Positions 2,589-30,911 of a stretch of 64,000 nt of DNA are shown piece after piece. Within the stretch, counting starts at the first letter, position 1, and each line of letters starts with the position of its first letter. The notes under the pieces are model-generated. The model had not been told where the DNA came from. It saw nothing but the letters and a program-made list of their open reading frames with translations, and made no database searches. The DNA comes from Acidimicrobiales bacterium. Lineage in GTDB: Bacteria > Actinomycetota > Acidimicrobiia > Acidimicrobiales > Bin134. A program made the translations under genes and the position numbers. The stretch spans positions 2,974,707 to 3,038,706 of the forward strand of contig OZ220474.1 in NCBI GenBank assembly GCA_965115985.1, read 5' to 3'.

Positions 2589-3767
2589 ATGAGCCGAGGT
2601 TCCGACAGCCGGTACCGTTTCACGTCCGAATCGGTGACCGGCGGCCATCCCGACAAGATCGCCGATCAGATCTCCGACGGGGTGCTGGATGCCCTGATGG
2701 AGGCGGACCCCACCAGCCGGGTGGCGTGCGAGACCCTGGTCACCACCGGTTTGGTGGTGGTGGCCGGGGAGATCACCACCGAGGCCTACATCGACATCTC
2801 CCGGGTGGTGCGCGACACCATCACCGGGATCGGCTACGACCGGGAGGACTTCGGTTTCGACGGCAACACCTGCGGGGTCATGCTGTCCATCGACGACCAG
2901 TCCCCCGACATCGCCCAGGGGGTGGACCGGCCCGACCCGGGAGAGCAGGGGGCCGGCGACCAGGGCATGATGTTCGGCTTCGCCTGTGACGAGACCCCGG
3001 AGCTGATGCCCCTTCCCATCCACGTCGCCCACCGGATGGTGGAACGCCTCACCGAGGTTCGCCGCTCGGGGTCGGTGCCCTACCTGCGGCCCGACGGCAA
3101 GAGCCAGGTGACGTTCGAGTACGAGGGAAACCGGCCGGTGGCCCTCGGCACCGTGGTGATGTCGGCCCACCACCGCGACGGGATCACCATGGAGGAGATG
3201 AGGGACGACCTGAGGGAGCAGGTGGTCGATCCGGCGGTGCCCGAGCGGTTCCGGGGGGACGGCTACGAGGTTCTGATCAATCCCACCGGCAAGTTCGTCA
3301 GGGGCGGGCCGGTGGCCGATGCCGGGCTCACCGGGCGCAAGATCATCGTGGACACCTACGGGGGCATGGCCCGTCACGGCGGGGGGGCCTTCTCGGGCAA
3401 GGACCCCAGCAAGGTGGATCGCTCCGGGGCCTACGCCGCCCGCTGGGTGGCCAAGAACGTGGTGGCCTCGGGGGCGGCCACCCGGTGCGAGGTTCAGGTG
3501 TCCTACGCCATAGGCGTCGCCGACCCGGTGTCGGTGATGGTGGAGACCTTCGGGACCGAGACGGTGGATCCGGCCAGGATCGGCCACCAGGTACACGAGA
3601 TCTTCGACCTTCGACCCGCGGCCATCATCCGGGACCTGGATCTGCTGCGGCCCATCTACCGGCCGACCGCGGCCTACGGCCACTTCGGGCGCAGCCCCGA
3701 GAGCACGTTCACCTGGGAACGCACCAACCGGGTGGACGATCTCCGCGCCGCGTTGGGGTTGTCCTAA
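2589..3767 (+). CDS. metK: S-adenosylmethionine synthetase
   Basis: 392 aa with canonical MetK motifs: [48 protein letters not shown]. Confidence 0.97.
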
Positions 3768-3782
3768 CCGCTCACCGGAAAA

Positions 3783-5495
3783 TTGCATGTCCGGGTCCTG
3801 CCCGATGTCGTCGCCATAGATCGCGAGTTCACCTACACGGTTCCCGAGGGCTGGGACGACGACCCCCGCTTCGGGGTGGGATCCATGGTCCGGGTGATGC
3901 TGGGCGGTCGCCGGACGGGGGGGTGGATCACCGCGGTGGACGTGGAACCGCCCGAGGGGGTGGAGCCGGTGCCGCTGGCCCGGTTGAGCGGGTTGGGGCC
4001 CGACGGGGGGTTGATCGATCTGAGCGGGTGGGCGGCTTGGCGCTGGGCCGGCCGTCGGGCCCACTTCCTGCGCACCGCCTCGCCCTCCCGCATGGTGGCT
4101 GCCCGTCCCCGCCCTCGGCGCTCCCGGTTGGTGGCCTCCGACGACCATGCCGACCTGTTCGCCGGCGAGGGTTGTGTTCTGCGGTCGGGGCCCTCGACCG
4201 ATCTTCTGCCCATCGCCGTGGCCGCGGCGGCTCGGGGCCAGGCGTTGATCCTGGTGCCCGACCACGAGCGGGCCGATCACCTGGTGCGGGGTCTGCGTCG
4301 GGCCGGGGCGTGGGCCGTGCGCCACCCCGAGGGTTGGGCCTCGGCCTCGGCCGGGGCCACCGTGGTGGGTACCTTGTCGGCGGCGTGGGCTCCCGCTCCC
4401 GAGTTGGCCGCGGTGCTGGTGGTCGACGAGCACGACGAGTCGTACCGCTCGGAGTCCGCCCCCACCTGGAGCGGCCGGGACGTGGCCCTGGAGCGGGCCC
4501 GCCGGGCCGGTGCTCCCTGCGTCATGTTGTCGCCGGTGCCCAGCCTGGAGGCGCTCCGGTCCCGCCGTCTGCTGCGGCCGGCTCGGGGCGTCGAGCGCGA
4601 CGGTTGGCCGCGGGTGGAGGTGGTGGATCGTCGCGGCGAGGATCCGGTGCGGGCCGGTCTCTATTCCCCGACGTTGGTTCGGGCGCTGCGGGAGGGCACC
4701 CGGGTGGCGTGCGTGTTGAACCGGCTGGGACGTTCGGTGCTGCTGGCCTGCCGGGTGTGCGGCGAGCTGGCGGTATGCACCGAATGCCGGTCGTCCATGC
4801 GTCAGACCGACGACGGGCGGTTGCGGTGCCGGACGGGGGATCACACTCGCCCCCAGATTTGTGCCGACTGCGGCAGCACCGGGATGCGTAACCTTCGGGC
4901 CGGGGTGAACCGGGTCCGTGAGGAGGTGGAGGCGCTGGTGCGCTCCCCGGTGGCGGAGGTCACCGGTAGGGGCTACGACGGCGCGCCCACTGCTCGGGTG
5001 GTGGTGGGCACCGAGGCGGTTCTGCATCTGGGCCGCCCGTTCGACCTGGTGGCTTTTTTAGAGTTCGACCAGGAGCTGCTGGCCCCCCGGTTCCGGGCTC
5101 GGGAGCAGGCGCTGGCCCTCATGGCCCGGGCGGCCCGGGTGACCGGCCCCCGTGCCACCGGCGGGCGCATCCTGGCGCAGACCCGGCTCCCCGACGACCC
5201 CGTGGTGGTGGCCGCGTTCCGAGCCGATCCGGCGATCCTGGCCCGTTACGAGCGGGACCACCGCCAGGAACTCCGTCTGCCTCCCTACGGGGCCATGGCC
5301 GTGGTGTCCGGCCCGGCCGCCGGGGAGTACATGGAGCGCCTCGGCAACCCACCGGGCCTCCGCACGGCCCCCGGCCCGGACGACCGTTTCTTTCTGCGAG
5401 CCCCCGACCACGACGTCCTGTGCGACGCCCTGGCCTCGGTGGAGCGCCCTTCCGGCCGTCTCCGCATCGATGTGGATCCCGTCAGGGCCATCTAG
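3783..5495 (+). CDS. priA: primosomal protein N' (PriA), actinobacterial type
   Basis: 570 aa with a TTG start. It has the Cys-rich zinc-binding insert CRVCGELAVCTECRSSMRQ...CADCGS and keeps the conserved position after metK. Confidence 0.8.
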   Translation: MHVRVLPDVVAIDREFTYTVPEGWDDDPRFGVGSMVRVMLGGRRTGGWITAVDVEPPEGVEPVPLARLSGLGPDGGLIDLSGWAAWRWAGRRAHFLRTASPSRMVAARPRPRRSRLVASDDHADLFAGEGCVLRSGPSTDLLPIAVAAAARGQALILVPDHERADHLVRGLRRAGAWAVRHPEGWASASAGATVVGTLSAAWAPAPELAAVLVVDEHDESYRSESAPTWSGRDVALERARRAGAPCVMLSPVPSLEALRSRRLLRPARGVERDGWPRVEVVDRRGEDPVRAGLYSPTLVRALREGTRVACVLNRLGRSVLLACRVCGELAVCTECRSSMRQTDDGRLRCRTGDHTRPQICADCGSTGMRNLRAGVNRVREEVEALVRSPVAEVTGRGYDGAPTARVVVGTEAVLHLGRPFDLVAFLEFDQELLAPRFRAREQALALMARAARVTGPRATGGRILAQTRLPDDPVVVAAFRADPAILARYERDHRQELRLPPYGAMAVVSGPAAGEYMERLGNPPGLRTAPGPDDRFFLRAPDHDVLCDALASVERPSGRLRIDVDPVRAI

Positions 5496-5567
5496 CTGGT
5501 CGGTACCGTCCCGCTCGGAGTCGGTGCGGATGTCGGCATCGATGTGGATCCGGTCAGGACCATCTAG
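5464..5567 (+). repeat. Direct repeat of the priA 3' end including its TAG (period 72 bp, 2 copies of a 32-bp core)
   Basis: gcatcgatgtggatcccgtcagggccatctag at 5464-5495 recurs as gcatcgatgtggatccggtcaggaccatctag at 5536-5567. Confidence 0.9.
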
Positions 5568-5598
5568 GTATCGGGGTTGAGGGGTGTTTTGGGATGTG

Positions 5599-5630
5599 TT
5601 GTGCCCCCCGGGGGGACCCGGGGGGCACAA
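5599..5630. terminator. Bidirectional stem-loop between convergent priA and the FN3 gene
   Basis: Perfect 14-bp stem ttgtgccccccggg / cccggggggcacaa with loop ggga. It is followed on the + strand by a T/G-rich tract (ctgtttgggtttgggttttggg). Confidence 0.6.
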
Positions 5631-5658
5631 CTGTTTGGGTTTGGGTTTTGGGATCTTG

Positions 5659-8600
5659 TTATGGGCCGCAGACGTCGGCGGCTAGGTCTGCGGGGGTGTC
5701 GCCGTAGTTGGTTCCTTTGAGGCGGCGGCATTCCTCGGTGAGTGCGGTTTTGAACTCGTCGTGGTGGATGGCGGCGAGGGCGTCGCCTGCTTTTTGGCGG
5801 GCTATGGCTTCGCGGCGGGTGTAGGGCAGCGAGCAGACGTCGGCCACTCCGTCGCGGTCCGAGTCGAGGGGGTAGGTGGTGGGCCCGCCCAGGGAGCGGT
5901 TGGTGCAGTAGCCGGGGCCGGTGATGGTGCCCGAGTAGTAGGGGCCGCCGTCGTTGATGGGCGCGTATCCCGGAGCGGCCAGCGTGTCGCCGCCGCAGGC
6001 CTGGTCGCCGTCGGGTTCGGCGGCGCAGGCGGCGTTGACCAGTGCTCGGTATTGGTCGGGGTAACGGTTGGCCAGGGTGATTACCGCGTTTTGGCGGGCT
6101 ATGGCTTCGCGGCGGGTATAGGGCAGCGAGCAGGTGTCGGCCACGCCGTTGCCGTCGCCGTCGAGGGCGAACAGGCGGGCTCCGCCCAGGGATCGGTCGG
6201 TGCAGAAGTCGGGGCCGTCGACCACGCCTGAGTAGTAGTCGTCGTTCACCGGTGGGGCCGAAGTGGGTGTCACCGGGTCGGAGGTGGTGACCGCGCCGTC
6301 GCCGATGGCGTTGGTGGCTCTGACCTCGAATGTGTAGGCCACTGCGCCGGTGCCGGTGTCCAAACCGGTCAGGCTCGCCCCTTCTGCGTCGGCGGCCATC
6401 ATGGTCCACTCGCCGTAGTCGCCGACCCCAACTCGCATGCGGTAGTGCCAGCCGGTGATTTGTGAGCCGCCGTCGCCGGTCGAGGCCCATGACAGGGTGA
6501 TTTCCCCGTCGCCGCCGGTAACGGTCACCGTCGGCGCCGACGGTACCGTCGCCGGGGTGGCCGATTCGGTGGTTACCGCGCCGTCGCCCATGGCGTTGGT
6601 GGCTCGTACTCCGAAGGTGTAGGCGGTTCCGTTGGTCAAGTCGGAAACGACATGGCTAGTGGCATCGGCGGCGAGGTCGGCCCATTCGCCGTCGCCGGTT
6701 CGCACGTGCCATCCGGTGATCGCCGAACCGTTGTCGCCGTTGGAGGTCCACGACAACATCACCATCATGTCGCCGGCCTCGGCGGTCAGCGTCGGCGCCG
6801 GGGGTGTTCCTGCGGGGGTGGCCGACGCGGTGGCGGCCTCGCCGGCACCGACCGCGTTCACCGCCCGCACTCCGAAGGTGTATGCGGTTCCGTTGTCCAG
6901 GTTGGATATCGACACGGTGTTGGTCGCGGAGGTGGTCAGATCGGCCCATTCGCCGTCACCGGTTCGAGACTGCCAGCCGGTGATGACCGAACCGCCATCA
7001 CCGTTGGGGGTCCACGACAGAGTGACCGCCATATCACCGGCTTCGGCGGTCAGCGTCGGCGCGGGAGGCACCACCGCGGGCGTGGCCGAATCAGACCCGG
7101 CTTCGCTGGCTCCCATGGGGTTTATCGCCCGCACCTCGAACGTGTAGGGAACACCGTTGGTCAGATCGGTGATGGTGTGGCCGGTGGTGGTGGCGTCGCT
7201 GTCGGCGATGTCGGTCCACGTCGCGAAGGCGCCGTCGCCGGTTCTCGTGCGGTATTGCCAGCTCGTGGTGGGCGACGCCCAGGTGGGCTCGCCGGGTGTA
7301 CCGGGGGTGCCCGCGGTCCATGTCAGTATTACTTGGCGGTCGCCGCGAGAAGCGGTCACCTGGGCCGGTTGGGGCGGTGTGGTGGACGGGGTGACGGTGT
7401 TTGACTCGAACTCGAATCCTTTGACCTGCTGGTTGTTGGTCACTGCTCGTACTGCGAATCGGTAGCCGATCCCGTTGGACAAACCGGTCACGGTATGAGA
7501 GGTGGTGGCGGGGCCGCTGTTTTCTATGTCGGTCCATGCTGCGTAGCCGCCGTCGTCTTGGCGTTGGCGGTATTGCCAGGCGGTGATGGTGCTGCCGGCG
7601 GAGGCGGCTCCGGCCCATGACAGCATGACCTGGGTGTCGCCGGCTCGGGCGTTGAGTGTTCCTGCGGTGGGGGCGCCGATGGGTATCACCGCGGAGGTCT
7701 CCAGGTGGGGGCCTGGCCCGTAGGTGTTCACTGCTCGTACTTGGAAGGTGTAGCTGACGCCGTTTTCCAGGTTGCGTATCACCGCACCGGTTTCTGCCGA
7801 GGGGCGGTCCGTTTTGAAGTTCGCGGTCTTCGGTATCGTGGTGCCCAGAGTTTCCCAGGCCTCCCAGGGTTCGCCGACGCGTTTTTTGCGAACCTGGTAT
7901 CCGGTCACTCGGTCGCCGCGAACGGTCGCCGATTCGTCCGAAAGCGCAAGCAGCGATGGTTTGGTGACCCTGAACGTGACCTGGGCGTCGCCGGCCTCCA
8001 CCAGTGCTCGTACCGGTGGGTTGGGTACTCGGCCCGGGGTGACGGGCAACGTCTGGGCGGCGGCTCCGGCGCCGATGGCGTTTATCGCTCTGATCCTGTA
8101 GGTGTAGGCGGTGCCGTTGGTCAACCCCGACACGATCGCGGAGGCGGCGGCGGGGTTGCGGCCGGGCACGTCGGTCCAGTCGTCCGCGGCGTCGCAGTCG
8201 GTGGAGAAGTCGCAGTACTGCCACTTGGTGATCGCCGGGCCACCGCTGCCGGCCGACGTCCAGGTGAGGGTCACCTGTCGGTCGCCGCCGGTCGCGGTCA
8301 ACCCCTCGGGGGCCGGAGGAGGGACTCCGGGGGTGACTGGTTTGGATTCCATGGTTATGCCGGGCAACGAGCCCAGTACGGCGCGGATTCTGAATTGGTG
8401 GGCCACGCCGTTGCCGAGGCCGTCGATTTCGAGTTCTTGGCTGTTGTTGAACTGCAAGCCGTTGTTGACGAACGTCCACTCTCCCCAGTCGCCGTCGGCG
8501 ATCTTGTAGGAGTACTCCCAACCGATGGTGCCGCCGAGGTTTTCCATCTGGCTCCTGGTCGAGATCGCGGAGTTGGCCGCGGCGGTGTCCCTGAGGCTCA

Positions 8601-10854
8601 GGATCGCTTTGCTGGTCCCCGCCTTGGCATGAAGAACCGGAAGAACGAAGGTGCCGGCGCCGGTGGAGCCGCCGGCCGAGCCGAGCATCGCGCCGCCGCC
8701 GGGCAGGGGTGGCCCGCCGTAGACGAACGCGGGACCCTCGGTGGCCAGACTGGGACCGTTGTCGTTGTAGTGGCGCACTCTCACTTGGTAGGTCTCGCCT
8801 ATTTTGAAATCGGTGATTGTCGTGCGTTGGTCCAAGGTGCTGGCCACGGTCCACGGACCCCAGGGACCGTCCCCAACCTTCCAGGAAACCTCGTCCCCAA
8901 CCTTGCCTGGTCCACTTCCTCTGAAAACTCGAGGTTTGCCGCCGTTGCTGGGAGAGTCCACATAATAAGCTATGGTCACCCATTTAGGTGCCCCCGGTGG
9001 CCGCTCGTCGCCATGGCCTTTTACTTTGACGACCGCGGACGAGAAACCTTTGCCGAAACTGTTTTCCGCTCGCAAAACCAGGTAACGATCGGAAATATAA
9101 CCTAAAGTAATGCCATCGGGGGCTTGCCCGTTCGCCAGGATGCGGGGCAAAGTGATAGTGTTCAACCCGGCGCACTCCTGTGGGTCGGTGATGTCCACCT
9201 GGTCGTCGCTCGCGTCCTGCGTGCTGTCGCACAACGGAATCCATTTGGTCTCGGCCGCCAAATCCTCCACGGAACCGTCATGCTTGTACTCCCAGGCGGT
9301 GATCGGAGAACCACCATCGCTGCCAGGGGTCCACGACAAAGTAATCCTCGCCGACCCATTGCGCGCTATCCAGTCGGCCTCCCCGGAGAAGTCCAACGGG
9401 GCCGCAGGCACCGTACCCGGGTAAAGATCCTTGGGGGTCTCCACATAGGGGCCGGGGCCGATACGGTTCACCGCCCGAATCCTGAACCGGTAGGGTGTGC
9501 CCGCAGCCAAACCGGGGACCTTGTACGCCCTGGACCCTGTCTTATCCACCTTGGCCAACTCGGTTAAAATTTCTCCGGCTGTCCCGTTGGTTAGGAATGT
9601 TTGGTCGGCGGGGATGGTCATCCACTGGCCCCACTCGCCATCACCGGTCTTTTGCTGGTACTCGTAACGAATCAAAGGGGAATCCCCATCGTTCATGCGC
9701 GTAACACCTCGAGGTTCTGCCCACTTCAAGGTGATCGAGTCCTCTCCCGGATCCTGCCGGAACCAAGTGGTGTCCCCAGCGGGCGCACCGGTGGGTACGG
9801 CACCGGGAACGCTGCCGGGATCGACAACGGGGGTCACGGAGGACTCGGTGCCCGCACCGTTGATGTTCACCGCCCGAACCTGGAAGCGGTAATTCTTGGT
9901 GTTGTCCAAACCGGTCACCACATAAGAAGTGGTGCCCGCGCCGCTGCCGGGGATCCTGGTCCATGGTGTGTCGGAGGGAATCCTCCCTCGGTACTCCCAT
10001 CCGGTGATCGGCGAACCCCCGTCGCTGCTCGCCACCCACGACAAGGTGACCGACTTGTCTCCCGGTGTGGTTCTGAGGTTCTGGGGGCGGCCCGGTTTGC
10101 CCGAGGCCACCACCGGTCCCACCTCGGCGGCGGGACCCGCACCGTTGGCGTTCACGGCTCGAAGCCTGAACCGATAGGTCACCCCGTTGGTCAAACCCGT
10201 GACCTCGAAATCACCGGAATACTGGTCGGAGCCGGGAACGATGTTCCAGGAGGTCCAATCCCCATCACCGGTCTTCTGCTGATACTCGTAGCGCACCGGG
10301 TCAGTCCACCCGGTCTCCACGCTGTCGAACTGGGGCAACGTCCAGTTCAGGGTGATCTTCGAATCATCTGGAGTGGCTCTCAACCCGCCGGGAGCCTGCG
10401 GCAAGCCAGTGATAGTGACCCGTTCGATCCTGGTCGCCAGGTTGCTGTCGCCCTTTTGGCCCGCGGCGTTCACCGCGCGGAGCTTGAAAGTGTAGGAGTA
10501 ACCATTGCGCAGGCCGGTGACGGTGTAGGAAGTGGTGGAGCCGGTGCTTCCCGGGATCGGGTACCACACTCCCTTGTCGGTTTGGGTGGATCCAAAAGGG
10601 CCTACCAAATAGGTGTACTCGTATCCCACGATCGGACTGCCACCGTTGTCGGTCGGGGCACTCCACGTCAATGTCGCCTGCCTGAAACCGGCCACCGCAA
10701 CCGGCTTACTCCTATCACCACCACTGGGCCCCAGAACTATCGACGGCCCCACCTGCTGCTGCGCACCAACACTACCAACCGGCACCAAAACCGCAGCCAA
10801 CAACACCCCGACAGCGGCCCACCCACCAACAGATCGCCCGGTGGAACCGCCCAT
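5659..10854 (-). CDS. Giant secreted protein: signal peptide, about 14 fibronectin type III domains, duplicated Cys-rich DxDxDG-containing C-terminal module
   Basis: The ORF runs 5659-10965. The ATG at 10854 is preceded by AGGA at 5-nt spacing and gives a signal peptide MGGSTGRSVGGWAAVGVLLAAVLVPVGSVGA/QQ. There are about 14 units with the FN3 signature (xTLxW...GGSPITGWEY...TGLxNGxxYxFxVRAVNxxG). The C-terminus carries two roughly 95-aa repeats with LDGDGNGVADTCSLPYTRREAIARQ and LDSDRDGVADVCSLPYTRREAIARQ. Alternative starts are 10917 (ATG) and 10965 (TTG). Confidence 0.85.
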   Translation of the reverse strand: MGGSTGRSVGGWAAVGVLLAAVLVPVGSVGAQQQVGPSIVLGPSGGDRSKPVAVAGFRQATLTWSAPTDNGGSPIVGYEYTYLVGPFGSTQTDKGVWYPIPGSTGSTTSYTVTGLRNGYSYTFKLRAVNAAGQKGDSNLATRIERVTITGLPQAPGGLRATPDDSKITLNWTLPQFDSVETGWTDPVRYEYQQKTGDGDWTSWNIVPGSDQYSGDFEVTGLTNGVTYRFRLRAVNANGAGPAAEVGPVVASGKPGRPQNLRTTPGDKSVTLSWVASSDGGSPITGWEYRGRIPSDTPWTRIPGSGAGTTSYVVTGLDNTKNYRFQVRAVNINGAGTESSVTPVVDPGSVPGAVPTGAPAGDTTWFRQDPGEDSITLKWAEPRGVTRMNDGDSPLIRYEYQQKTGDGEWGQWMTIPADQTFLTNGTAGEILTELAKVDKTGSRAYKVPGLAAGTPYRFRIRAVNRIGPGPYVETPKDLYPGTVPAAPLDFSGEADWIARNGSARITLSWTPGSDGGSPITAWEYKHDGSVEDLAAETKWIPLCDSTQDASDDQVDITDPQECAGLNTITLPRILANGQAPDGITLGYISDRYLVLRAENSFGKGFSSAVVKVKGHGDERPPGAPKWVTIAYYVDSPSNGGKPRVFRGSGPGKVGDEVSWKVGDGPWGPWTVASTLDQRTTITDFKIGETYQVRVRHYNDNGPSLATEGPAFVYGGPPLPGGGAMLGSAGGSTGAGTFVLPVLHAKAGTSKAILSLRDTAAANSAISTRSQMENLGGTIGWEYSYKIADGDWGEWTFVNNGLQFNNSQELEIDGLGNGVAHQFRIRAVLGSLPGITMESKPVTPGVPPPAPEGLTATGGDRQVTLTWTSAGSGGPAITKWQYCDFSTDCDAADDWTDVPGRNPAAASAIVSGLTNGTAYTYRIRAINAIGAGAAAQTLPVTPGRVPNPPVRALVEAGDAQVTFRVTKPSLLALSDESATVRGDRVTGYQVRKKRVGEPWEAWETLGTTIPKTANFKTDRPSAETGAVIRNLENGVSYTFQVRAVNTYGPGPHLETSAVIPIGAPTAGTLNARAGDTQVMLSWAGAASAGSTITAWQYRQRQDDGGYAAWTDIENSGPATTSHTVTGLSNGIGYRFAVRAVTNNQQVKGFEFESNTVTPSTTPPQPAQVTASRGDRQVILTWTAGTPGTPGEPTWASPTTSWQYRTRTGDGAFATWTDIADSDATTTGHTITDLTNGVPYTFEVRAINPMGASEAGSDSATPAVVPPAPTLTAEAGDMAVTLSWTPNGDGGSVITGWQSRTGDGEWADLTTSATNTVSISNLDNGTAYTFGVRAVNAVGAGEAATASATPAGTPPAPTLTAEAGDMMVMLSWTSNGDNGSAITGWHVRTGDGEWADLAADATSHVVSDLTNGTAYTFGVRATNAMGDGAVTTESATPATVPSAPTVTVTGGDGEITLSWASTGDGGSQITGWHYRMRVGVGDYGEWTMMAADAEGASLTGLDTGTGAVAYTFEVRATNAIGDGAVTTSDPVTPTSAPPVNDDYYSGVVDGPDFCTDRSLGGARLFALDGDGNGVADTCSLPYTRREAIARQNAVITLANRYPDQYRALVNAACAAEPDGDQACGGDTLAAPGYAPINDGGPYYSGTITGPGYCTNRSLGGPTTYPLDSDRDGVADVCSLPYTRREAIARQKAGDALAAIHHDEFKTALTEECRRLKGTNYGDTPADLAADVCGP

Positions 10855-10931
10855 CGAAGTCCTAGCAACCCGCCGGACACGGCCGACGGCACGGCCCCAA
10901 AACCTGGATTCAATCATAGGGGCGAGTATCG

Positions 10932-10948
10932 CCCCCCCCCCCCCCCCC
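10932..10948 (-). repeat. Homopolymer G17 (C17 on + strand) upstream of, or at the extreme 5' end of, the FN3 gene
   Basis: Counted directly: 17 consecutive C at 10932-10948. This is 78-94 nt upstream of the preferred ATG 10854, or codons 7-11 (GGGGG) if TTG 10965 were used. Confidence 0.9.
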
Positions 10949-11090
10949 GTCAAGTCTCTGGGCAAAAAGTTCTAGGGTTTAGAGTGTTGCCCCCGGCGGG
11001 CCCGGAGGCGACAAAGGTCCAGATACCCGAGCCAAGAAACGCTTCAGGAAGTGGAGTCGCCCCGGGAGGGCTGGAAGCCCACCCGGCTGG

Positions 11091-11723
11091 CTAACGTACC
11101 TCCAGGATTCGGTAGCCCCGGCGGGATCCGAGCCGGGTGGTGGGGTGGCCCTGCTCCTCCAGCCATCGGGCCAGCGAGTCCGAGCCCAGGTTCTTGTTGA
11201 CCACTAGGTAGGCCCGCCCTCCGTCGTCCAGCCTTCCCAGCCAGGTGGTCAGCATCCGGTGGAGGGCGACCTTGCCGATACGGATGGGAGGGTTGGAGTA
11301 GATGGCGGCGAAGCGAACATCGGGAGGAACCTCGTCGGGCAGGCATGCGGTGGCGGTTCCACCGGCGTGGCGATCCAGGTTGGCCCGGCACAACTCCAGC
11401 GCTCGAGGGTTGACGTCCACGGCCCACAGCGGTACCTGGGGGGCCCACCGGCTCAGTGCCACCGCGATCGGCCCGTACCCGCAGCCCAGATCCAGCAGCG
11501 GTCCGGTTCGGGGTGGGCGAGGGCCCTCGGCCAGCAAGTACCGGGTTCCCCAGTCCACCTCGTCGGCCGCGAACACTCCCCGGTCGGTAGCCAGCTCGAC
11601 GTCCAGATCACCCACCCGCAACTCGACCGTCCCCGCCCGCCGCCCGCTCTCCGGCCCGGTGCTGAAGTAGTGGGAGTTGCTCACACCTCGACGGTACCCC
11701 GTCCGGCGGTCCTGCCCGCCCAT
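11091..11723 (-). CDS. Class I SAM-dependent methyltransferase, small-domain (RsmC/RsmD-like) type
   Basis: LLDLGCGYGPIAVALS (motif I) and IYSNPPIRIGK (NPPxR catalytic motif). The start is uncertain (ATG 11723 or GTG 11684). Confidence 0.8.
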   Translation of the reverse strand: MGGQDRRTGYRRGVSNSHYFSTGPESGRRAGTVELRVGDLDVELATDRGVFAADEVDWGTRYLLAEGPRPPRTGPLLDLGCGYGPIAVALSRWAPQVPLWAVDVNPRALELCRANLDRHAGGTATACLPDEVPPDVRFAAIYSNPPIRIGKVALHRMLTTWLGRLDDGGRAYLVVNKNLGSDSLARWLEEQGHPTTRLGSRRGYRILEVR

Positions 11724-11830
11724 CCGGCTCGGAGGCCTGCTGGGTGGTTCCGCCCGCCCATCCGGCTCGGAGGCTCCGTCCGGTGGTCCCGTCCGCTCAT
11801 CCGGCTCGGCTGCTTGGGTGCGGGCCTTCC
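11714..11830. repeat. 38-39 bp x3 tandem repeat at the methyltransferase 5' end / def upstream region
   Basis: gcccgcccatccggctcggaggc occurs at 11714 and 11752. A degenerate third copy (gtccgctcatccggctcggctgc) lies at 11791. Confidence 0.85.
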
Positions 11831-11854
11831 ATCGGTTGGCGGTAACCTGCGGCC

Positions 11855-12379
11855 ATGGCTCCGCTGCGGATACGAGTGTACGGCGACCCGGTGCTGCGGC
11901 GGGTGGCGGCGGACGTCACCGACATCGACGGGGCGATGGCCGATCTGTGCGGTCAAATGTTCACCGCCATGTACGAGGCCCCGGGCATCGGTCTGGCCGC
12001 GCCCCAGGTGGGGGTGTCCCAGCGGTTCTTCGTGTACGACATGGGTGAGGGGCCCGAGGTTCTGGTCAATCCCGAGATCGCCGACCGTGACGGCGAATGG
12101 GTCTACAACGAGGGCTGCCTGTCGGTGCCCGAACTGTCGTGGGAGATCGTCCGGCCCCGCCGCATCCACCTGAGGGCCCACGATCTGGACGGCAACGAGG
12201 TGTCCATCGAGGCCGAGGACCTCCAGGCCCGTCTCTTCCAGCACGAACTCGACCACCTCGATGGCAGGATCCTGCTCGACTATCTGGACGAGGATCAGCG
12301 TCGGGAGGCCAAGCGCATCCTGCGGCACCGGACGATGGGCGACCGCAGCCGTCCCCCTGGCCGCGGATTGTCGTTGTAG
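11855..12379 (+). CDS. def: peptide deformylase
   Basis: 174 aa with the three Def motifs: GIGLAAPQVG, EGCLSVP, QHELDHLDG. Confidence 0.95.
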   Translation: MAPLRIRVYGDPVLRRVAADVTDIDGAMADLCGQMFTAMYEAPGIGLAAPQVGVSQRFFVYDMGEGPEVLVNPEIADRDGEWVYNEGCLSVPELSWEIVRPRRIHLRAHDLDGNEVSIEAEDLQARLFQHELDHLDGRILLDYLDEDQRREAKRILRHRTMGDRSRPPGRGLSL

Positions 12380-13260
12380 TGATCGACCCGCCGGTCGAGG
12401 TCCACCGGCTCGTATACCTCGGCACCCCGGTGGAATCGGTGCCGTTCCTGGAAGCGCTGGTCGAGGCCGGTTTCGACGTGGTCCTGGTGGTCACCCGGCC
12501 CGACAAGCGCCGGGGACGGCGGACTGCTCCCACCCCCAGCCCGGTGAAGGCCGCCGCCCGGAGGTTGGGGGTTCCCACCACTTCCGAGGTGGACGACGTG
12601 CTCGACGTCGATGCCGACCTCGGCGTGGTGGTGGCCTTCGGGCGGATCATCAAACCCCATGTGCTCGACCGGTTGGCCATGGTCAACGTCCACTTTTCGC
12701 TACTGCCCCGTTGGCGGGGCGCGGCCCCGGTGGAGCGGGCCATCCTGGCCGGTGACCGGGTGACCGGGGTGGGCCTGATGGAGGTGGACGAGGGACTCGA
12801 CACCGGCCGGGTGTATCGCCAGGTCGAAGTGCCCGTGGCCCCCGATGCCACCGCGGCGTCGCTGCGGGCCGACATGGTGGAAGCCGCCGTTCCCATGCTG
12901 ATCGGGGCCCTCCAGGATGGCCTGGGCAGGCCCGAGCCCCAGCGGGGGGAGCCGGTGTACGCGGCCAGGATCACCCGTGACGAGCTTCGCCTCGACTGGG
13001 AGCAGCCGGCAGCGTTTTTGTGCCGGCAGGTCCGGGTCGGTGGGGCGTGGACGACCTGGCGAGGGAAAACCCTGAAAATCTGGTCGGCCCTCTCGGTCGG
13101 GGGGTCGCAACCGGTCGGCCGGATCGACGGCGATCTGGTCGGCACCGGCGAGGGACGGTTGCGGCTGCTGGAGGTTCAGGCCGAGGGCGGCCGCCGCCAG
13201 GCCGCCGGGGACTGGTACCGGGGGGCCCGCCCGACCCCCGACGACCGCCTCGGGCCGTGA
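12379..13260 (+). CDS. fmt: methionyl-tRNA formyltransferase
   Basis: Within ORF 12097-13260 the homology begins at VYLGTPVESVPFLEALVEAG. It continues with HFSLLPRWRGAAPVERAILAGD. The proposed GTG 12379 overlaps the def TAG by 1 nt. Confidence 0.85.
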   Translation: MIDPPVEVHRLVYLGTPVESVPFLEALVEAGFDVVLVVTRPDKRRGRRTAPTPSPVKAAARRLGVPTTSEVDDVLDVDADLGVVVAFGRIIKPHVLDRLAMVNVHFSLLPRWRGAAPVERAILAGDRVTGVGLMEVDEGLDTGRVYRQVEVPVAPDATAASLRADMVEAAVPMLIGALQDGLGRPEPQRGEPVYAARITRDELRLDWEQPAAFLCRQVRVGGAWTTWRGKTLKIWSALSVGGSQPVGRIDGDLVGTGEGRLRLLEVQAEGGRRQAAGDWYRGARPTPDDRLGP

Positions 13261-13400
13261 ACCCCGCCGGCGGAGGGCGAAACGCTCGGGCCGTGAACCC
13301 TACCGGCGGAGAGCGAAACGCTCGGGCCGTGAATCCTGCCGGCGGGGAGCGAAACGCTCGGGCCGTGAATCCTGCCGGCGGGGAGCGAAACGCTCGGGCC
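13249..13400 (+). repeat. 36-bp x4.2 tandem repeat of the fmt-stop / rsmB-start GTGA junction
   Basis: ctcgggccGTGAa recurs with TGA at 13258, 13294, 13330 and 13366 (period exactly 36). A fifth partial copy reads GTTG instead of GTGA. Confidence 0.95.
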
Positions 13401-14756
13401 GTTGCCGCCTCGCTTTTGAACCGAATCGAGGGCGATGGGGCCTACGCCAACCTGGTGCTGGCCTCGGCCGACCTGCCCGAGCGTGACGCGCCTTTCATCA
13501 CCGAGCTGGTCTACGGGGTTACCCGCATGCGCCGGGCCCTGGATTACCTGATCGACGGTTTCGTGGCCGACCCTCCCGACCTCGGCACCCGCAACCTGCT
13601 GCGGATCGGGGCCTACCAGCTCCACATGATGGCCACCCCGGCGTATGCCGCGGTGAGCGAGACCGTCCAAGCCTGCCCTCGTCGCCGCCGGGGATTCGTC
13701 AACGCCGTCCTGCGCCGGGTGGCCGAGATGGACCCGGTATGGCCTTCAGATGCGGTCCGATTGAGCTACCCGGATTGGATGTTGGAGCAACTGGAGGGCG
13801 ACCTCGGACCGGCTGATGCCCACGCCGCGCTGGAGCGGATGAACCAGCCGACCGCGGTCGCCACCCGATCCGACGGCTATGTCCAGGATCGGGCGTCGCA
13901 GTGGGTGGCCGAGCTGGTCGATCCCCAGCCGGGGAATCTGGTTCTGGACATGTGCGCCGGTCCGGGAGGAAAGGCCACGGCCATGGCCGGGAGATCGGTG
14001 ATTTCGGAGAGCCCAGCCGAAGCCGGGAGATCGGCAACGGCAAAGAGCCCAGCCGAAGCCGGGAGATCGGCAACGGCAAAGAGCCCAGCCGAAGCCGGGA
14101 GATCGGCAACGGCAAAGAGCCCAGCCGAAGCCGGGAGATCGGCAACGGCGGAGAGCCCAGCCGGAGCCGGGAGATCGGCAACGGCGGAGAGCCCAGGAAC
14201 GGCCAAAAGTCCGCCCATCGTGGTGGCTGCCGATCACCGCCGTCATCGAGCATTGCTGGTGGCGAACAACTCCATCCGCTCCGGTGTCCCCCTGGCCGGT
14301 GTGGTGGTCGCCGACGGCCGTCAACCGCCGTTTCGCTCCGGTTCTTTCGACCGGGTGCTGGTGGATGCCCCCTGCTCTGGTCTGGGGGTGCTGGGGCGTC
14401 GGGCCGATGCCCGCTGGCGGGTGGGTCCCGACGACGTGGAGGAGCTGGCCCGTCTCCAGTCCGAGTTGGTTCGGACCGCATTTCGTTTGGTCCGTCCCGC
14501 GGGAGTGGTGGTGTACAGCGTCTGCACCATGACCGTGGCCGAGACGGTGGCCATCGACGACATGGTGGCCCGGGAGCACCCGGATGCCGTGCCGGTGGTC
14601 ATCGACGACATGGTGGCTCGGGAGCACCCGGACACCGTGCCGGTGACCATCGACGACACCCGCTGGCGGCCCTGGGGCCGTGGAGCCCTCGTCCTCCCCC
14701 AGGACCACGACACCGACGGGATGTTCGTCGCCATCTACATGACTCCCGCAGGCTGA
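13257..14756 (+). CDS. rsmB: 16S rRNA (cytosine967-C5)-methyltransferase RsmB/Sun
   Basis: NusB-like N-domain (ARAVAASLLNRIEGDGAYANLVL), SAM motif DMCAGPGGKA, and catalytic region DRVLVDAPCSGLGVLGRRADARWR. The start can be any of four in-frame GTGs (13257, 13293, 13329, 13365). Confidence 0.85.
   Translation: MNPAGGGRNARAVNPTGGERNARAVNPAGGERNARAVNPAGGERNARAVAASLLNRIEGDGAYANLVLASADLPERDAPFITELVYGVTRMRRALDYLIDGFVADPPDLGTRNLLRIGAYQLHMMATPAYAAVSETVQACPRRRRGFVNAVLRRVAEMDPVWPSDAVRLSYPDWMLEQLEGDLGPADAHAALERMNQPTAVATRSDGYVQDRASQWVAELVDPQPGNLVLDMCAGPGGKATAMAGRSVISESPAEAGRSATAKSPAEAGRSATAKSPAEAGRSATAKSPAEAGRSATAESPAGAGRSATAESPGTAKSPPIVVAADHRRHRALLVANNSIRSGVPLAGVVVADGRQPPFRSGSFDRVLVDAPCSGLGVLGRRADARWRVGPDDVEELARLQSELVRTAFRLVRPAGVVVYSVCTMTVAETVAIDDMVAREHPDAVPVVIDDMVAREHPDTVPVTIDDTRWRPWGRGALVLPQDHDTDGMFVAIYMTPAG
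13986..14207 (+). repeat. 36-bp x~6 in-frame tandem repeat inside rsmB, encoding (SPAEAGRSATAK)n
   Basis: Units begin at 14009, 14045, 14081, 14117 and 14153, with partial copies at both edges. The array sits immediately after the GPGGKATAMAG SAM-binding motif. Confidence 0.93.
14553..14660 (+). repeat. 48-bp x2.2 in-frame tandem repeat near the rsmB C-terminus, encoding IDDMVAREHPD(A/T)VPV(V/T)
   Basis: atcgacgacatggtggc occurs at 14553 and 14601, with a partial copy at 14649. Confidence 0.92.
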
Positions 14757-14855
14757 TTGTCCTTGCATCGGTCGGGTGGGTGGGCCGGTACCCCGGTTGT
14801 CGAGTCGGCCGGCCCACTCGCCCCCCAGCCGGTCGGGTGGGTAATCTGGGCGGCG

Positions 14856-15344
14856 ATGACGGATCGGGACACCGCCGGATTGGTGGCCAGAGTCCTAACG
14901 GTGTCCGACGGGGTGATCGCCGGTACCCGAAAGGACGAATCGGGTGATGCTCTGGTGGAGCTGCTGGTTCGCGAGGGATACCGGGTGGACGATCGCCGAG
15001 CGATCGAGGACGGGGTCGAGTCGGTGCGTGATGCCCTGGTGGACCTGTCCAGCGGCTTCGCCGGGCTCGTCGTCACCACCGGAGGGACCGGTTTCGGGCC
15101 TCGGGATCTGACTCCCGAAGGCACTGCCGCGGTGGTGGAGCGGCGGGCCGACGGCCTGGCCGAGGCCACTCGGTTGGTGACCCCGTTCGGTCGTCTGTCC
15201 CGAGCCATCGCCGGCACCAGGGGCACCGCGCTGATCGTGAACCTCCCCGGATCACCGAAGGGGGCGGTGGAGTGTCTGGAAGCGGTGCTCGACGTCATCC
15301 CCCACGCACTGCGCCTGCTGGCCGACCAACCGACCGAGCATTGA
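14856..15344 (+). CDS. mog: Molybdenum cofactor biosynthesis protein MogA/MoaB family
   Basis: VLTVSDGV...GDALVELL...VVTTGGTGFGPRD.TPE...PGSPKGAVECL, the MoaB/Mog fold signature. The ATG at 14856 lies inside ORF 14757-15344. Confidence 0.85.
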   Translation: MTDRDTAGLVARVLTVSDGVIAGTRKDESGDALVELLVREGYRVDDRRAIEDGVESVRDALVDLSSGFAGLVVTTGGTGFGPRDLTPEGTAAVVERRADGLAEATRLVTPFGRLSRAIAGTRGTALIVNLPGSPKGAVECLEAVLDVIPHALRLLADQPTEH

Positions 15345-15345
15345 C

Positions 15346-15490
15346 GTCGCCCCCCGGTGGTGAGGAAGGGGGCCGGGGCTGATGGGGCGGCGGGGTGCCT
15401 CCCGGCCCGAGTCGCCCCCCGGTGGTGAGGAAGGGGGCCGGGGCTGATGGGGCGGCGGGATATCTCCCGGCCCGAATCGCCCCCCGGAGA
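15346..15490 (+). repeat. 65-bp x2.2 tandem repeat between mog and ribD, including the ribD start region
   Basis: gtcgccccccggtggtgaggaagggggccggggctgatggggcggcggg occurs at 15346 and 15411, with a partial third copy from about 15476. The ATGs at 15382 and 15447 are 65 nt apart and so in different frames. Confidence 0.92.
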
Positions 15491-16496
15491 TCAACGGGGC
15501 CGGGACGACCGGATGATGGATCTGGCGCTGGAGGCGGCTCGCTCCTGTCGGCTCGTCACCTCGCCCAATCCGTGGGTGGGAGCGGTGGTGGACGCCGGCG
15601 GGAAGCAGTTCACCGGGGCCACCTCGCCGCCGGGCGGCAACCATGCGGAGATCAACGCTCTCGGAGCCGCGGGGCCGAGAGCCGAGGGGGCCGATCTCTA
15701 CACCACCCTGGAACCTTGCGATCACCGAAGTCGCACCGGACCCTGCACCGAGGCCATCATCGCCGCGGGGGTTGCTCGGGTGGTGGTGGCGGTCGAGGAT
15801 CCCGACCCGGCGGTCCGGGGGCGGGGCATCTCCGCCCTGCAAAGAGCGGGTATTACCGTAAAGATGGGGGTGCGAGCCACCGATGCCGCCGAGCTGCTCG
15901 CCCCCTACCTCAAGCACCGTCGTACCGGACTTCCCTGGGTGGTGCTGAAGCTGGCCGCATCGCTGGACGGCCGCATCGCTGCTCCCGACACCACCAGCCG
16001 CTGGATCACCGGACCGCAGGCCCGGGCCGACAGCCACCGGTTGCGGGCCGAGAGCGATGCCGTGCTGGTGGGGGCGGGTACCGTGAGAGCCGACGATCCG
16101 GCACTCACCGTGCGTCGCTGGCAACCACCCCCGGGCGTGACCCCCGGCATCGACCAGCCCCTCAGGGTGGTTCTGGGCGTCGCTCCCCCCGGTGCCCGTG
16201 TTCACCCGGCATTGGAGATGGACGGCCCGCTCGAACAGGTGCTTCGGGAGCTGGGGGAGCGGGGCGTGATCCAACTCCTGGTGGAGGGGGGCGCGACCAC
16301 CGCCGCCTCCTTCCACCGAGCCGGCTTGGTGGATCACTACGCCGTCTACCTGGCTCCCGCCCTGTTCGGGGGCGACGACGGCCTTCCCCTGTTCTCCGGT
16401 CCGGGGGTGGCCACCATCTCCGATCTGTGGCGGGGAGAGATCGCCGATGTGTGCCGACTGGGCCCCGACCTGCGCATCGATCTCCGTCCTGGCTGA
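15447..16496 (+). CDS. ribD: Bifunctional riboflavin biosynthesis deaminase/reductase RibD
   Basis: Deaminase zinc motifs HAEINAL and PCDHRSRTGPC. Reductase domain LKLAASLDGRIA...SR.ITG. The start may instead be the MMDLALEAA methionine at 15513. Confidence 0.9.
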   Translation: MGRRDISRPESPPGDQRGRDDRMMDLALEAARSCRLVTSPNPWVGAVVDAGGKQFTGATSPPGGNHAEINALGAAGPRAEGADLYTTLEPCDHRSRTGPCTEAIIAAGVARVVVAVEDPDPAVRGRGISALQRAGITVKMGVRATDAAELLAPYLKHRRTGLPWVVLKLAASLDGRIAAPDTTSRWITGPQARADSHRLRAESDAVLVGAGTVRADDPALTVRRWQPPPGVTPGIDQPLRVVLGVAPPGARVHPALEMDGPLEQVLRELGERGVIQLLVEGGATTAASFHRAGLVDHYAVYLAPALFGGDDGLPLFSGPGVATISDLWRGEIADVCRLGPDLRIDLRPG

Positions 16497-16665
16497 ACCC
16501 GGGTATGGGCTCGACACCGACGAGGACGCGCACCTCGTCGTCACGTCGCATTGATCTCCGTCCCGGCTGAACCCGGGTATGGGTCGCATTGCCCCCAGTC
16601 CCGGCTGAACCCGGGTATGGGTCGCATTGCCCCCAGTCCCGGCTGAACCCGGGTATGGGTCGCAG
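16470..16665 (+). repeat. Repeat array (38-bp unit, 4 copies; first interval 74 bp) copying the ribD stop region
   Basis: ggctgaacccgggtatggg occurs at 16491 (containing the ribD TGA), 16565, 16603 and 16641. The first spacer contains an 8-bp-stem hairpin, cgacgagg-acgcgca-cctcgtcg. Confidence 0.92.
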
Positions 16666-22052: not shown

Positions 22053-23198
22053 ATGAGCTGGGTGGAGGGGATCGTGTTCACGGTGGGGGCGCTGATCTCC
22101 CTGGGCACGCTGCTGGCCGCGGTCCGAACGGTTGTGGTTCCCCGAGCCGAGCGGAGCCTGCTGATCCGTTTCGTCTACGTCGGCGTGGGGTTGCTGTTCT
22201 CGTTGCTGGCCCGGCACCGCAAGTCCTACGAGTCGCGGGACACGCTTCTGGCCCGCTACGCCTCGACCACGCTGATGATGCTGCCGTTCGTGTGGGCCAC
22301 CGGGATCGTCTACGGGTTCTCGCTCATGTTCTGGGCCAACGGTGTGCGCCCGTACCGGGAGTCCTTGATGTTGAGCGGGTCTTCGCTGGCCACGTTGGGT
22401 TTCCGGGAGAAGAACGACCTGGTGAGCCTGATGCTGGCCATAATCGAGGCGCTCATAGGCCTGGGCATCGTGGCGCTTTTGATCAGCTTTCTTCCCGCCA
22501 TGTACAGCGCGTTCAGTTCTCGGGAGGCCGCGGTCGCCCGACTCGAGGTCAGGGCCGGCACCCCCCCGACGCCGGAGGCCATGATCATTCTGGCTCACAA
22601 GCACGGGGCCCTGGAGTCCATGGGCGATACCTGGACCGAGTGGGAGCACTGGTTCATCCAGATCGAGGAGACCCATCAGATCTTCCCGGCGCTGTCCTTC
22701 TTCCGGTCGGTCCGCTCCGACCGATCGTGGGTCGTCGCCGCCGGTGCCGTCCTGGACACCGCGGCCATCATGTTGTCCACGGTGGCGGTACCTCACTCGC
22801 CGACGGTGCCGTTCATGATCCGGTCGGGTTATATGGCCCTGCGGCACATCGCCGACTTCCTCGGTATCGACTACGACCCCGATCCGCGGCCCACCGACCC
22901 GATCACCGTGCGCCGCCACGAGTTCCACAAAACCTACGAGACGTTGAAAAACGCCGGGGTGCCGGTGGTGGAGGATCGTGACCAGGCGTGGCGTGACTTC
23001 GCCGGTTGGCGGGTCAACTACGACGATTGTCTGGTAGGGCTGGCCTCGATCACCTCGGCCCCACCGGGCAAGTGGAGCAGCGACCGTCCGTCCCCCTACC
23101 ACCGACTGCCATTGCTCCACCGCCCCCGACACCGCCCCCGGACTCCCCTGTTGCGCCAACTCCTGCGCCGATCCGACGATTCGGCGAGGCGGCGGTGA
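22053..23198 (+). CDS. Membrane protein with possible 2-TM pore-loop (ion-channel-like) N-terminal half and cytosolic C-terminal domain
   Basis: The layout is TM - SGSSLATLGFRE - TM (LVSLMLAIIEALIGLGIVALLISFL), which resembles a K+-channel pore helix, filter and inner helix. The function is not established. The stop TGA 23196-23198 lies in the first unit of the downstream 37-bp array. Confidence 0.7.
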   Translation: MSWVEGIVFTVGALISLGTLLAAVRTVVVPRAERSLLIRFVYVGVGLLFSLLARHRKSYESRDTLLARYASTTLMMLPFVWATGIVYGFSLMFWANGVRPYRESLMLSGSSLATLGFREKNDLVSLMLAIIEALIGLGIVALLISFLPAMYSAFSSREAAVARLEVRAGTPPTPEAMIILAHKHGALESMGDTWTEWEHWFIQIEETHQIFPALSFFRSVRSDRSWVVAAGAVLDTAAIMLSTVAVPHSPTVPFMIRSGYMALRHIADFLGIDYDPDPRPTDPITVRRHEFHKTYETLKNAGVPVVEDRDQAWRDFAGWRVNYDDCLVGLASITSAPPGKWSSDRPSPYHRLPLLHRPRHRPRTPLLRQLLRRSDDSARRR

Positions 23199-23393
23199 TT
23201 TCGTGGGAGCGTGCGGTTCGGCGAGGCGGCGGTGATTTCGTGGGAGCGTGCGGTTCGGCGAGGCGGCGGTGATTTCGTGGGAGCGTGCGGTTCGGCGAGG
23301 CGGCGGTGATTTCGTGGGAGCGTGCGGTTCGGCGAGGCGGCGGTGATTTCGTGGGAGCGTGCGGTTCGGCGAGGCGGCGGTGATTTCTTCGGG
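23180..23393. repeat. 37-bp x5.6 tandem repeat starting at the stop codon of the preceding gene
   Basis: ttcggcgaggcggcggtgatttcgtgggagcgtgcgg starts at 23180, 23217, 23254, 23291, 23328 and 23365. The full copies are identical. Confidence 0.95.
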
Positions 23394-30818: not shown

Positions 30819-30911
30819 GGGAGACAGCCATGAGGCCAGGCGGCCGCGACCATGAGGGGAGACAGCCATGAGGCCAGGCGGCCGCGACCATGAGGGGAGA
30901 CAGCCATGAGT
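30779..30911 (+). repeat. Complex 19/38/57-bp tandem repeat of the small-subunit stop / large-subunit start junction (ATGAGTAG)
   Basis: ccaggcggccgcgaccatgaggggagacagccatgag occurs at 30779, 30836 and 30874. gggagacagccATGAGTAG occurs at the first copy (stop used at 30816-30818) and at the last copy (ATG used at 30906). Confidence 0.92.

Follow-up and report, generated by a model that had tools for sequence, protein, structure and literature searches.

Amplification of a GTGA stop/start overlap between fmt and rsmB in a minisatellite-rich lineage of Acidimicrobiia

We describe a gene junction in a 64,000-nucleotide stretch of an Acidimicrobiales bacterium (GenBank assembly GCA_965115985.1, contig OZ220474.1, positions 2,974,707 to 3,038,706; hereafter the window), at which the GTGA overlap between the stop codon of fmt and the start codon of rsmB recurs four times within a 36-bp minisatellite. 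Close relatives carry this overlap once, and arrays with unrelated units lie elsewhere in the window of this sponge-symbiont genome and in the closest species. We propose that the fmt/rsmB array is probably a locally born minisatellite that persists because duplication of the junction harms neither gene, with RsmB made from the first of four in-frame GTG codons. The array is most likely a tolerated by-product rather than a dedicated regulatory device. Taken singly, the locus is of moderate interest; it is more telling as an instance of a lineage-wide phenomenon.

The junction array and its single-copy ancestor

The array comprises 4.3 head-to-tail copies of a 36-bp unit (consensus CTCGGGCCGTGAACCCTGCCGGCGGAGAGCGAAACG; Table 1), with 94% matches, no indels and a score of 259 in Tandem Repeats Finder (TRF), and a second repeat search returned it as one repeat family with a spacing of 36. 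Each unit spans the end of fmt (its last three codons), the GTGA, and codons one to nine of the rsmB leader. An earlier reading made from the sequence only (hereafter the sequence-only reading) had described four 36-bp copies with TGA at 13258, 13294, 13330 and 13366, the first of them ending fmt, a GTG in the rsmB frame in each full unit, and a partial fifth copy reading GTTG. These observations stand: the sequence and TRF return the same four copies and TGAs, the fmt open reading frame (ORF) ends at 13258-13260, the GTGs at 13257, 13293, 13329 and 13365 are all (4/4) in frame with the rsmB ORF ending at 14756, and the fifth copy runs as stated. The unit translates in the rsmB frame as VNPAGG(G/E)RNARA, with one A-to-T variant, and translation across the repeat-repeat boundaries would give, among others, RNARAVNPTGGER, NARAVNPTGGER and NARAVNPAGGER. 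Copies 1, 2 and 3 are three to four substitutions apart and copies 3 and 4 are identical (pairwise differences of 3, 3 and 0); the five variable sites form a graded pattern. As head-to-tail units of 10-100 bp repeated far beyond chance, the array is a minisatellite. Its chance origin is excluded, because 20 dinucleotide-preserving shuffles of the whole window gave no array (cut-off: period of at least 15, score of at least 100), against 23 in the real window.

The genes def, fmt and rsmB all lie on the plus strand as neighbours in one co-directional run. The def stop TAG (12377-12379) shares one base with the GTG start of fmt (TAGTG, spacing -1); this start, at 12379, yields VIDPPVEVHRLVYLGTP and agrees with the 293-residue Fmt of two relatives, L088 and L089. 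The TGA of the second GTGA, at 13294, is a back-up stop in the fmt frame only. We found no promoter- or terminator-like site in 12900-13700, no match to Rfam families in 12000-16000 at E <= 0.1, and no special RNA fold in 13200-13450 (z = -0.43 versus shuffles).

Junction DNA was compared in 13 distinct close relatives (L002-L007, L009-L011, L089-L092), which are Candidatus Poriferisocius-like Acidimicrobiia; the nearest RsmB homologues likewise come from Candidatus Poriferisocius and related sponge-associated Acidimicrobiia. All 13 have exactly one GTGA at the fmt/rsmB junction, which reads CTCGG(A/G/T)(T/C)(C/T)GTGA, with fmt ending in DRLG[S/L/P] and rsmB starting at that GTG. Independent gene calls in relatives give the same 4-nt overlap (fmt 9123-10004, rsmB from 10001), and a more distant relative, L093, has TAGTG at the junction, a 1-nt overlap. 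By this comparison the ancestral fmt/rsmB junction was one GTGA overlap, as the sequence-only reading had supposed and had expected relatives to show; that reading's counter-case, an ancient fixed multi-copy linker, finds no match, as the relatives share no multi-copy array. The single RsmB leader of relatives reads (V/M)SRxQSGxASGNARAVAA (in the sister species, HSGGGRNARTVAV) and is poorly conserved among them. The array unit is collinear with the single-copy fmt 3' end and rsmB leader of relatives, and this alignment marks it as native to the locus rather than as an element that was inserted. The unit is flanked here by a perfect 10-bp direct repeat, CTCGGGCCGT, a microhomology of the sort that would favour slipped-strand duplication; in single-copy relatives the corresponding repeat is imperfect, with 6-7 of 10 positions matching.

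The fmt/rsmB junction of the closest species, L088, bears a different rearrangement (L088 9958-10045, equivalent to L001 2958-3045). There, a 32-bp insert of 41% GC (TAAGGAAACTCGCCCATGGGAAAAAATACGAA), flanked by a perfect direct repeat of 28 bp (CCACTCTGGCGGGGGGCGAAACGCCCGG, period 60), carries a TAA stop, an AAGGA motif resembling a Shine-Dalgarno (SD) sequence and a new ATG for rsmB; we found no sequence similar to this insert in L088 or in the window. The old GTGA ORF is cut to 11 codons (VSHSGGGRNAR), and the rsmB ATG stands 41 nt beyond the fmt stop. In its geometry, with a 28-bp duplication around a 32-bp insert, the rearrangement resembles ectopic CRISPR-spacer integration. Because the L088 junction is rearranged in its own way and rsmB there has its own SD-ATG start, the fmt/rsmB junction is a repeated target in this lineage, and uncoupling of the two genes is tolerated. 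Just upstream (L088 7687-9956, compared with window 11091-12379), L088 lacks def between the MTS methyltransferase gene and fmt, where it is present in the window and in L089-L093; the L088 MTS gene is called at 394 residues, versus about 170-210 elsewhere, and contains a 36-bp x 3.7 array.

The start of RsmB and the persistence of the array

We propose that a tandem duplication of the single ancestral GTGA junction was followed by expansion to 4.3 copies, in a setting, this genome and its closest sister species, where 24-94-bp tandem duplications arise genome-wide. The duplication probably occurred by replication slippage or unequal exchange between the 10-bp direct repeats. Such an event leaves an intact upstream 3' end in the first copy and an intact downstream 5' end in the last, so a duplication spanning a stop/start overlap would be intrinsically harmless and pass selection; the array would then persist because it damages neither gene. 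Here, fmt terminates at the first TGA and keeps its native C-terminus, and each copy has a start for rsmB, all in one frame, as 36 nt make 12 codons. RsmB would be made by termination-reinitiation at GTG 13257 (GTG1), at -4 to the fmt stop, giving a working enzyme with three extra copies of the 12-residue leader, that is, a 36-residue N-terminal extension predicted to be disordered. Minor initiation at the three later GTGs (GTG2-4) may also occur.

By its domains and catalytic cysteines, the rsmB product is a predicted enzyme of the RsmB/Fmu family. Pfam detects NusB (E=3e-22, residues 44-156) and Methyltr_RsmB-F (E=1e-39), the catalytic motifs DAPCSG and YSVCT are intact and invariant in the homologue alignment, and nearly all invariant columns are kept. 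The product from GTG 13257 is exactly the public gene call P0001, at 499 residues; the RsmB of relatives typically has 376-392. Besides the junction array, which encodes residues 1-48, the gene contains two further in-frame minisatellites without counterpart in relatives, the first of them directly after motif I of the S-adenosylmethionine (SAM)-binding site (GPGGKATA). An AlphaFold2 model built from 42 homologues has high confidence except at residues 1-41, 250-311 and 456-463, where the predicted local distance difference test (pLDDT) score is below 50, and these three stretches match the three arrays. We therefore treat the repeat-encoded N-terminal extension and the internal inserts as predicted disordered segments. 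The first helix of the model begins at residue 46, and position 1 of the NusB profile falls at residue 44 (RNARAV), within the last repeat copy.

Most likely RsmB starts mainly at GTG1, as in the ancestor, because this codon alone keeps the ancestral upstream context and the -4 overlap with the stop codon actually reached, and because GTG2-4 are distant and have no well-placed SD. The unit holds only one SD-like motif (GGAGG/GGAGA/GGGGA), about 16 nt upstream of the next GTG; the usual SD spacing window is 5-10 nt. No SD occurs in the 20 nt before GTG1, here or in relatives, which fits coupling-dependent initiation. According to published data, coupling peaks at spacings of -4 to +3 nt and loses 3-10 fold in strength near +40 nt, and reinitiating ribosomes prefer the nearest start (PMC12548453). 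That the array is translated is mildly favoured by its period, because all intragenic arrays have a period divisible by 3, against 3 of 16 non-coding ones. The proposal of the sequence-only reading that the four GTGs are equivalent starts is unsupported: GTG2-4 lie at +32, +68 and +104 nt from the fmt stop, and their SD-like motif is too far off. Its other counter-case, a start downstream of the array, also finds no credible site, the only in-frame candidate being TTG 13416, inside helix 1 of the NusB-like domain.

Some points weigh against a tolerated, locally born array read from GTG1. The start codon in use, the slippage mechanism and the near-neutrality of the array are all things we infer. 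With three to four substitutions between copies, the array is evidently not of very recent origin and has been maintained for a while, which would also fit a selected role. Three of its five variable sites are synonymous third positions in the rsmB frame, a pattern that is suggestive of translation but not significant. Nor does the proposal account for the genome-wide burst of arrays, described below, or for its preference for periods of 35-38 bp. Finally, no conspecific genome or contig in which to look for copy-number polymorphism turned up in the protein database, the contig index or the metagenome scan. A 5.8-billion-protein database held no conspecific RsmB (after the exact P0001, the next match was P0002 at 83% identity), and a metagenome-wide scan with AACGCTCGGGCCGTTGCCGCC, the boundary of array and unique sequence that is present in any allele, gave six matches, all unrelated and due to chance. 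A literature search under the name 'Poriferisocius' found nothing relevant.

We consider it unlikely, if conceivable, that the array is a tuning device in which initiation at any of the four GTGs produces N-terminal isoforms with zero to three extra copies of VNPAGGERNARA, and in which copy number adjusts both expression and tail length. The four GTGs are intact and in frame, a GGAGG-like motif precedes each internal one, and the array has been kept through three to four substitutions per copy with no GTG or frame lost; the unit is mildly basic (two Arg, one Glu) and precedes an RNA-binding NusB-like domain, and coupling at +32 nt can still work, if less efficiently (PMC12548453). Yet ribosomes from GTG1 read through GTG2-4 and would occlude them, the motif stands outside the usual spacing, and the leader is poorly conserved in relatives and predicted to be disordered. 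Similar arrays at many unrelated junctions and intergenic sites mean that no locus-specific function is needed. Moreover, the claim of the sequence-only reading that copy number sets both the coupling distance and the N-terminal length fails for any single initiation event, in which the two cannot both vary: from GTG1 the distance is fixed at -4 and only the length grows with copies, and from the last GTG the length is ancestral and only the distance grows.

More doubtful is a start at that last GTG (13365), with the upstream copies serving as a 104-nt spacer, untranslated or incidentally translated, that uncouples rsmB from fmt. This would restore the exact ancestral architecture of a 12-residue leader and NusB-like domain, and uncoupling is tolerated in L088. 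However, the site has no properly spaced SD and lies at a distance from the fmt stop where coupling is weak; GTG1, with its ancestral upstream context, should capture terminating ribosomes first, and the period of the array, divisible by 3 as in all intragenic arrays, favours translation throughout.

We give very little credence to the idea that rsmB is decaying in a symbiont, its three large insertions marking relaxed selection on a gene being lost. The three arrays do add about 120 residues to one gene, and one of about 60 residues directly follows motif I; but the reading frame is unbroken, each of the three periods is divisible by 3, the catalytic motifs are conserved together with nearly all invariant columns, the model folds confidently outside the inserts, and clearly essential genes of the lineage bear similar in-frame arrays (coaBC and the metK junction). 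Least credible is mis-assembly, for which tandem repeats are a classic hazard and which has no specific support here: the copies have diverged at five sites in a graded pattern, the array product is encoded on a 3.37-Mb contig, and similar arrays occur in two independent complete genomes, this one and the independently assembled L088, with none in five other genomes (single Mb-scale contigs), so an artefact is highly unlikely.

Minisatellites across the lineage

The array is not a special feature of the fmt/rsmB junction, as the sequence-only reading had taken it to be. It is one of 23 non-overlapping arrays in the window (about 3.6 per 10 kb, at the cut-off used for the shuffles), two more of which lie within rsmB, and the lineage-wide burst has amplified other junctions too. 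About 21 kb of synteny were compared in genomes that are each assembled as one Mb-scale contig. The window has 8 arrays in this region, and 10 lie in that of L088, whose RsmB is 83% identical; the 105 kb covered in L089-L093 contain none, and distant Acidimicrobiia have 3 in 393 kb. Arrays of the window and of L088 occupy different positions and have different units. When the 23 unit consensuses were compared pairwise, on both strands and in all rotations, the mean local score was 8.5, versus 8.0 in shuffled controls, and the highest score of any pair was 18, out of at least 36 possible. With units unrelated and positions differing between the window and L088, the arrays point to a lineage-specific burst of local tandem duplication rather than to a repeat family that has spread. 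Several window arrays are 100% identical between copies (23180-23387, 37 bp x 5.6; 49435-49656, 68 bp x 3.3), which suggests that the process is recent or continuing. Periods of 35-38 bp account for 14 of 33 arrays in the window and L088, with a second group at 50-68 bp; we know of no mechanism that would set a unit of about 36 bp.

Array positions were read against window neighbours verified with Pfam; a caller based on GC content at third codon positions (GC3) was dropped, as it mis-called several genes (ribD and the luciferase-like gene among them). Every array that lies entirely within a gene has a period that is a multiple of 3 (36, 36, 48, 51, 63 and 48 in the window; 36 and 36 in L088) and sits in a linker or loop, for example between the two CoaBC domains or inside inositol monophosphatase. 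Only 3 of the 16 non-coding window arrays have such a period. Most arrays sit at gene boundaries; by independent gene calls, 8 of the 10 arrays in L088 overlap gene boundaries or intergenic DNA. Within 16485-16664, after ribD, a 38-bp x 3.2 array includes a copy of the 3' end of ribD together with the stop codon (CCCGGCTGAACCCGGGTATGG). About 60 nt upstream of this copy lies the original ribD stop region, which indicates that this region was duplicated and then amplified.

Several other junctions are amplified as well, in one of two layouts (Table 1). The L088 rpoZ/coaBC array, with a TGA per unit and in-frame start codons, is an exact analogue of the fmt/rsmB array. At the coaBC/metK junction of L088, where the amplified ancestral ATGA overlap is one that is single in L089 (coaBC 3739-4986, metK 4983-6158, -4 overlap), each relay mini-ORF instead ends on the next ATGA. 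In the coxS/coxL and luciferase-like junctions the copied ATG begins a mini-ORF of 13 codons, which terminates on the true ATG (ATGA). At the GMC oxidoreductase start, two earlier ATGs, at 49463 and 49531, each begin a mini-ORF of 23 codons (MNGATASQPVDTVVVGAGSGVGA), its TGA overlapping the next ATG (ATGA), and an older, diverged partial copy (ADIVIVGAGS) lies just upstream of the array.

All eight arrays that contain a start codon have periods of 0 or 2 mod 3 and none of 1 mod 3. As a test of frame class this is not significant: measured against the empirical background the value is about 0.11, since a bias to 2 mod 3 is also seen among arrays that lack a start codon. Of the 16 non-coding window arrays, 10 have a period of 2 mod 3 (post hoc binomial about 0.016). 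We offer only tentatively, as something short of likely, a joint reading in which a recent and possibly ongoing, sequence-independent burst of tandem duplication is filtered by selection that keeps mainly boundary arrays whose period preserves ribosome flow. Periods divisible by 3 would extend the N-terminus in frame, as at fmt/rsmB and L088 rpoZ/coaBC; those of 2 mod 3, when joined with an NTGA or TGATG start, would give relay mini-ORFs, each ending on the next start. [quoted passage not shown]

For annotation, the rsmB start is ambiguous among four GTGs, the public call of 499 residues is about 120 longer than any orthologue, and similar start ambiguity is to be expected across this genome. 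As a rule, junction-spanning tandem duplication leaves both genes intact, so that junctions of a compact, high-duplication genome would collect minisatellites. Between them, the window and the sister genome supply a natural set of amplified junctions with two to four copies, both in-frame ladders and mini-ORF relays, on which the effect of distance and small ORFs on coupling could be tested, and the arrays are candidate variable-number tandem repeat (VNTR) markers for typing uncultured sponge symbionts.

Other features of the window stand apart from the junction. In a 1768-residue ORF (5659-10965, minus strand) between priA and a small methyltransferase gene, Pfam recognises 11 or more fibronectin type III domains (fn3, E=3.5e-97). 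The syntenic space is nearly empty in six relatives, with only short unannotated ORFs of 58-72 residues in two. The ORF has the look of an insertion, particular to the lineage, of a eukaryote-like repeat protein, and a strong AT skew (-0.27 at 4-8 kb) coincides with it. Two further repeats look like ordinary metal-binding repeats outside the minisatellite burst: a coding, low-complexity Asp/Glu/His-rich repeat at 44378-44818 (minus strand), in an ORF without Pfam match (44105-45118), and a His-rich tract at 63328-63523 (minus strand), at the N-terminus of a cation-efflux (cation diffusion facilitator, CDF) transporter (62371-63543).

Table 1. Coordinates of the fmt/rsmB junction, its genes and other arrays (window positions unless L088 is named)
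Feature	Coordinates	Strand	Details
def (peptide deformylase)	11855-12379	+	Pfam Pep_deformylase, E=4.6e-47
fmt (methionyl-tRNA formyltransferase)	12379-13260	+	293 aa, ending DDRLGP; Pfam Formyl_trans_N, Formyl_trans_C
fmt/rsmB minisatellite	13249-13402	+	four full units and a 10-nt partial unit
Full unit copies	13249-13284, 13285-13320, 13321-13356, 13357-13392	+	
Partial fifth copy	13393-13402	+	10 nt, CTCGGGCCGT then TGCC; GTTG replaces GTGA
GTGA no. 1	13257-13260	+	true fmt stop (TGA 13258-13260) over GTG 13257 in ancestral context, most likely the main RsmB start
GTGA no. 2	13293-13296	+	GTG +32 nt past fmt stop, rsmB frame
GTGA no. 3	13329-13332	+	GTG +68 nt past fmt stop, rsmB frame
GTGA no. 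4	13365-13368	+	GTG +104 nt past fmt stop, rsmB frame; a start here would give ancestral-length RsmB
rsmB/fmu (predicted 16S rRNA m5C methyltransferase)	13257-14756	+	499 aa from GTG1; Pfam, homologues, alignment, AlphaFold2 model
NusB-like N-terminal domain of RsmB	13386-13724	+	Pfam, AlphaFold2
Second in-frame minisatellite in rsmB	14008-14196	+	36 bp x 5.2, 98% match, SPAEAGRSATAK
Third in-frame minisatellite in rsmB	14538-14658	+	48 bp x 2.5, AVPVVIDDMVAREHPD
coxS (2Fe-2S)/coxL junction array	30798-30910		19- and 38-bp units around CCATGAGTAGG
Luciferase-like monooxygenase/downstream gene junction array	47343-47421	-	38 bp x 2.1
GMC oxidoreductase start array	49435-49656		68 bp x 3.3, 100% identical copies; true ATG 49599
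L088 rpoZ/coaBC junction array	L088 3055-3202		36 bp x 4.1; TGA per unit, four in-frame ATGs
L088 coaBC/metK ATGA overlap array	L088 4455-4652		50 bp x 4.0; three 17-codon relay mini-ORFs, MSRGSNHRYSTVSQEIQ
Further window arrays (examples)	1804-1911, 11698-11809, 15346-15487, 16545-16664, 23180-23387, 34441-34583, 37454-37637, 38798-39015, 46255-46367		

Comparison with known systems

The first copy of the junction is a textbook NTGA pair: fmt and rsmB are co-directional ORFs of the def-fmt-rsmB run with no promoter or terminator between them, and the GTGA at 13257-13260 is single in 13 relatives. Such stop/start overlaps, and the termination-reinitiation coupling across them, have been reviewed by Brown and Wade 2025 (PMC12548453). 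The junction differs from a simple coupled pair in that the overlap and its surroundings stand four times in tandem, and only the first TGA is reached by ribosomes, the other GTGAs being internal rsmB codons or alternative starts.

We also considered a phase-variable contingency locus and rejected it, as any copy number keeps the rsmB frame and fmt always ends at the first TGA. Coding and upstream VNTRs offer a looser analogy: a period that is a multiple of 3 can be tolerated in a part of a protein that is predicted to be disordered, and the array may affect downstream expression, as does VNTR3239, which lies upstream of fpg1 in Mycobacterium tuberculosis and modulates expression (PMC2734929). 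In contrast to these cases, the repeat here spans the stop/start overlap of two housekeeping genes, not a surface protein or promoter.

By analogy, the closest known counterpart of the fmt/rsmB array is the mycobacterial MIRU-VNTR. In M. tuberculosis, tandem units of 40-100 bp at operon junctions carry small ORFs that overlap the stop and start codons of the neighbouring genes; the units of the MIRU family are dispersed and related to one another, and they are presumed to be mobile, with insertion at start codons (PMC12548453; PMC2734929). The likeness lies in tandem units of tens of bp placed exactly at gene junctions of an actinobacterium, in frames that keep ribosomes flowing downstream, with ORF ends over stop and start codons at an operon junction; for the fmt/rsmB array it is a likeness of layout only. 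The sibling arrays at the GMC oxidoreductase start, the coxS/coxL and luciferase-like junctions and L088 coaBC/metK come closer to the MIRU layout, with a mini-ORF of 13-23 codons per copy and a TGA over the next ATG. A dispersed or mobile family of the MIRU kind was rejected here, as the units are unrelated and native to their loci. Each array has its own unit, homologous to the single-copy junction of relatives, and because of this we suggest that these MIRU-like arrays arose by local duplication rather than insertion. The fmt/rsmB array would thus be a junction VNTR with a MIRU-like layout but local birth, and the arrays together suggest a way in which repeats of MIRU-like layout can form at junctions with no mobile element involved.

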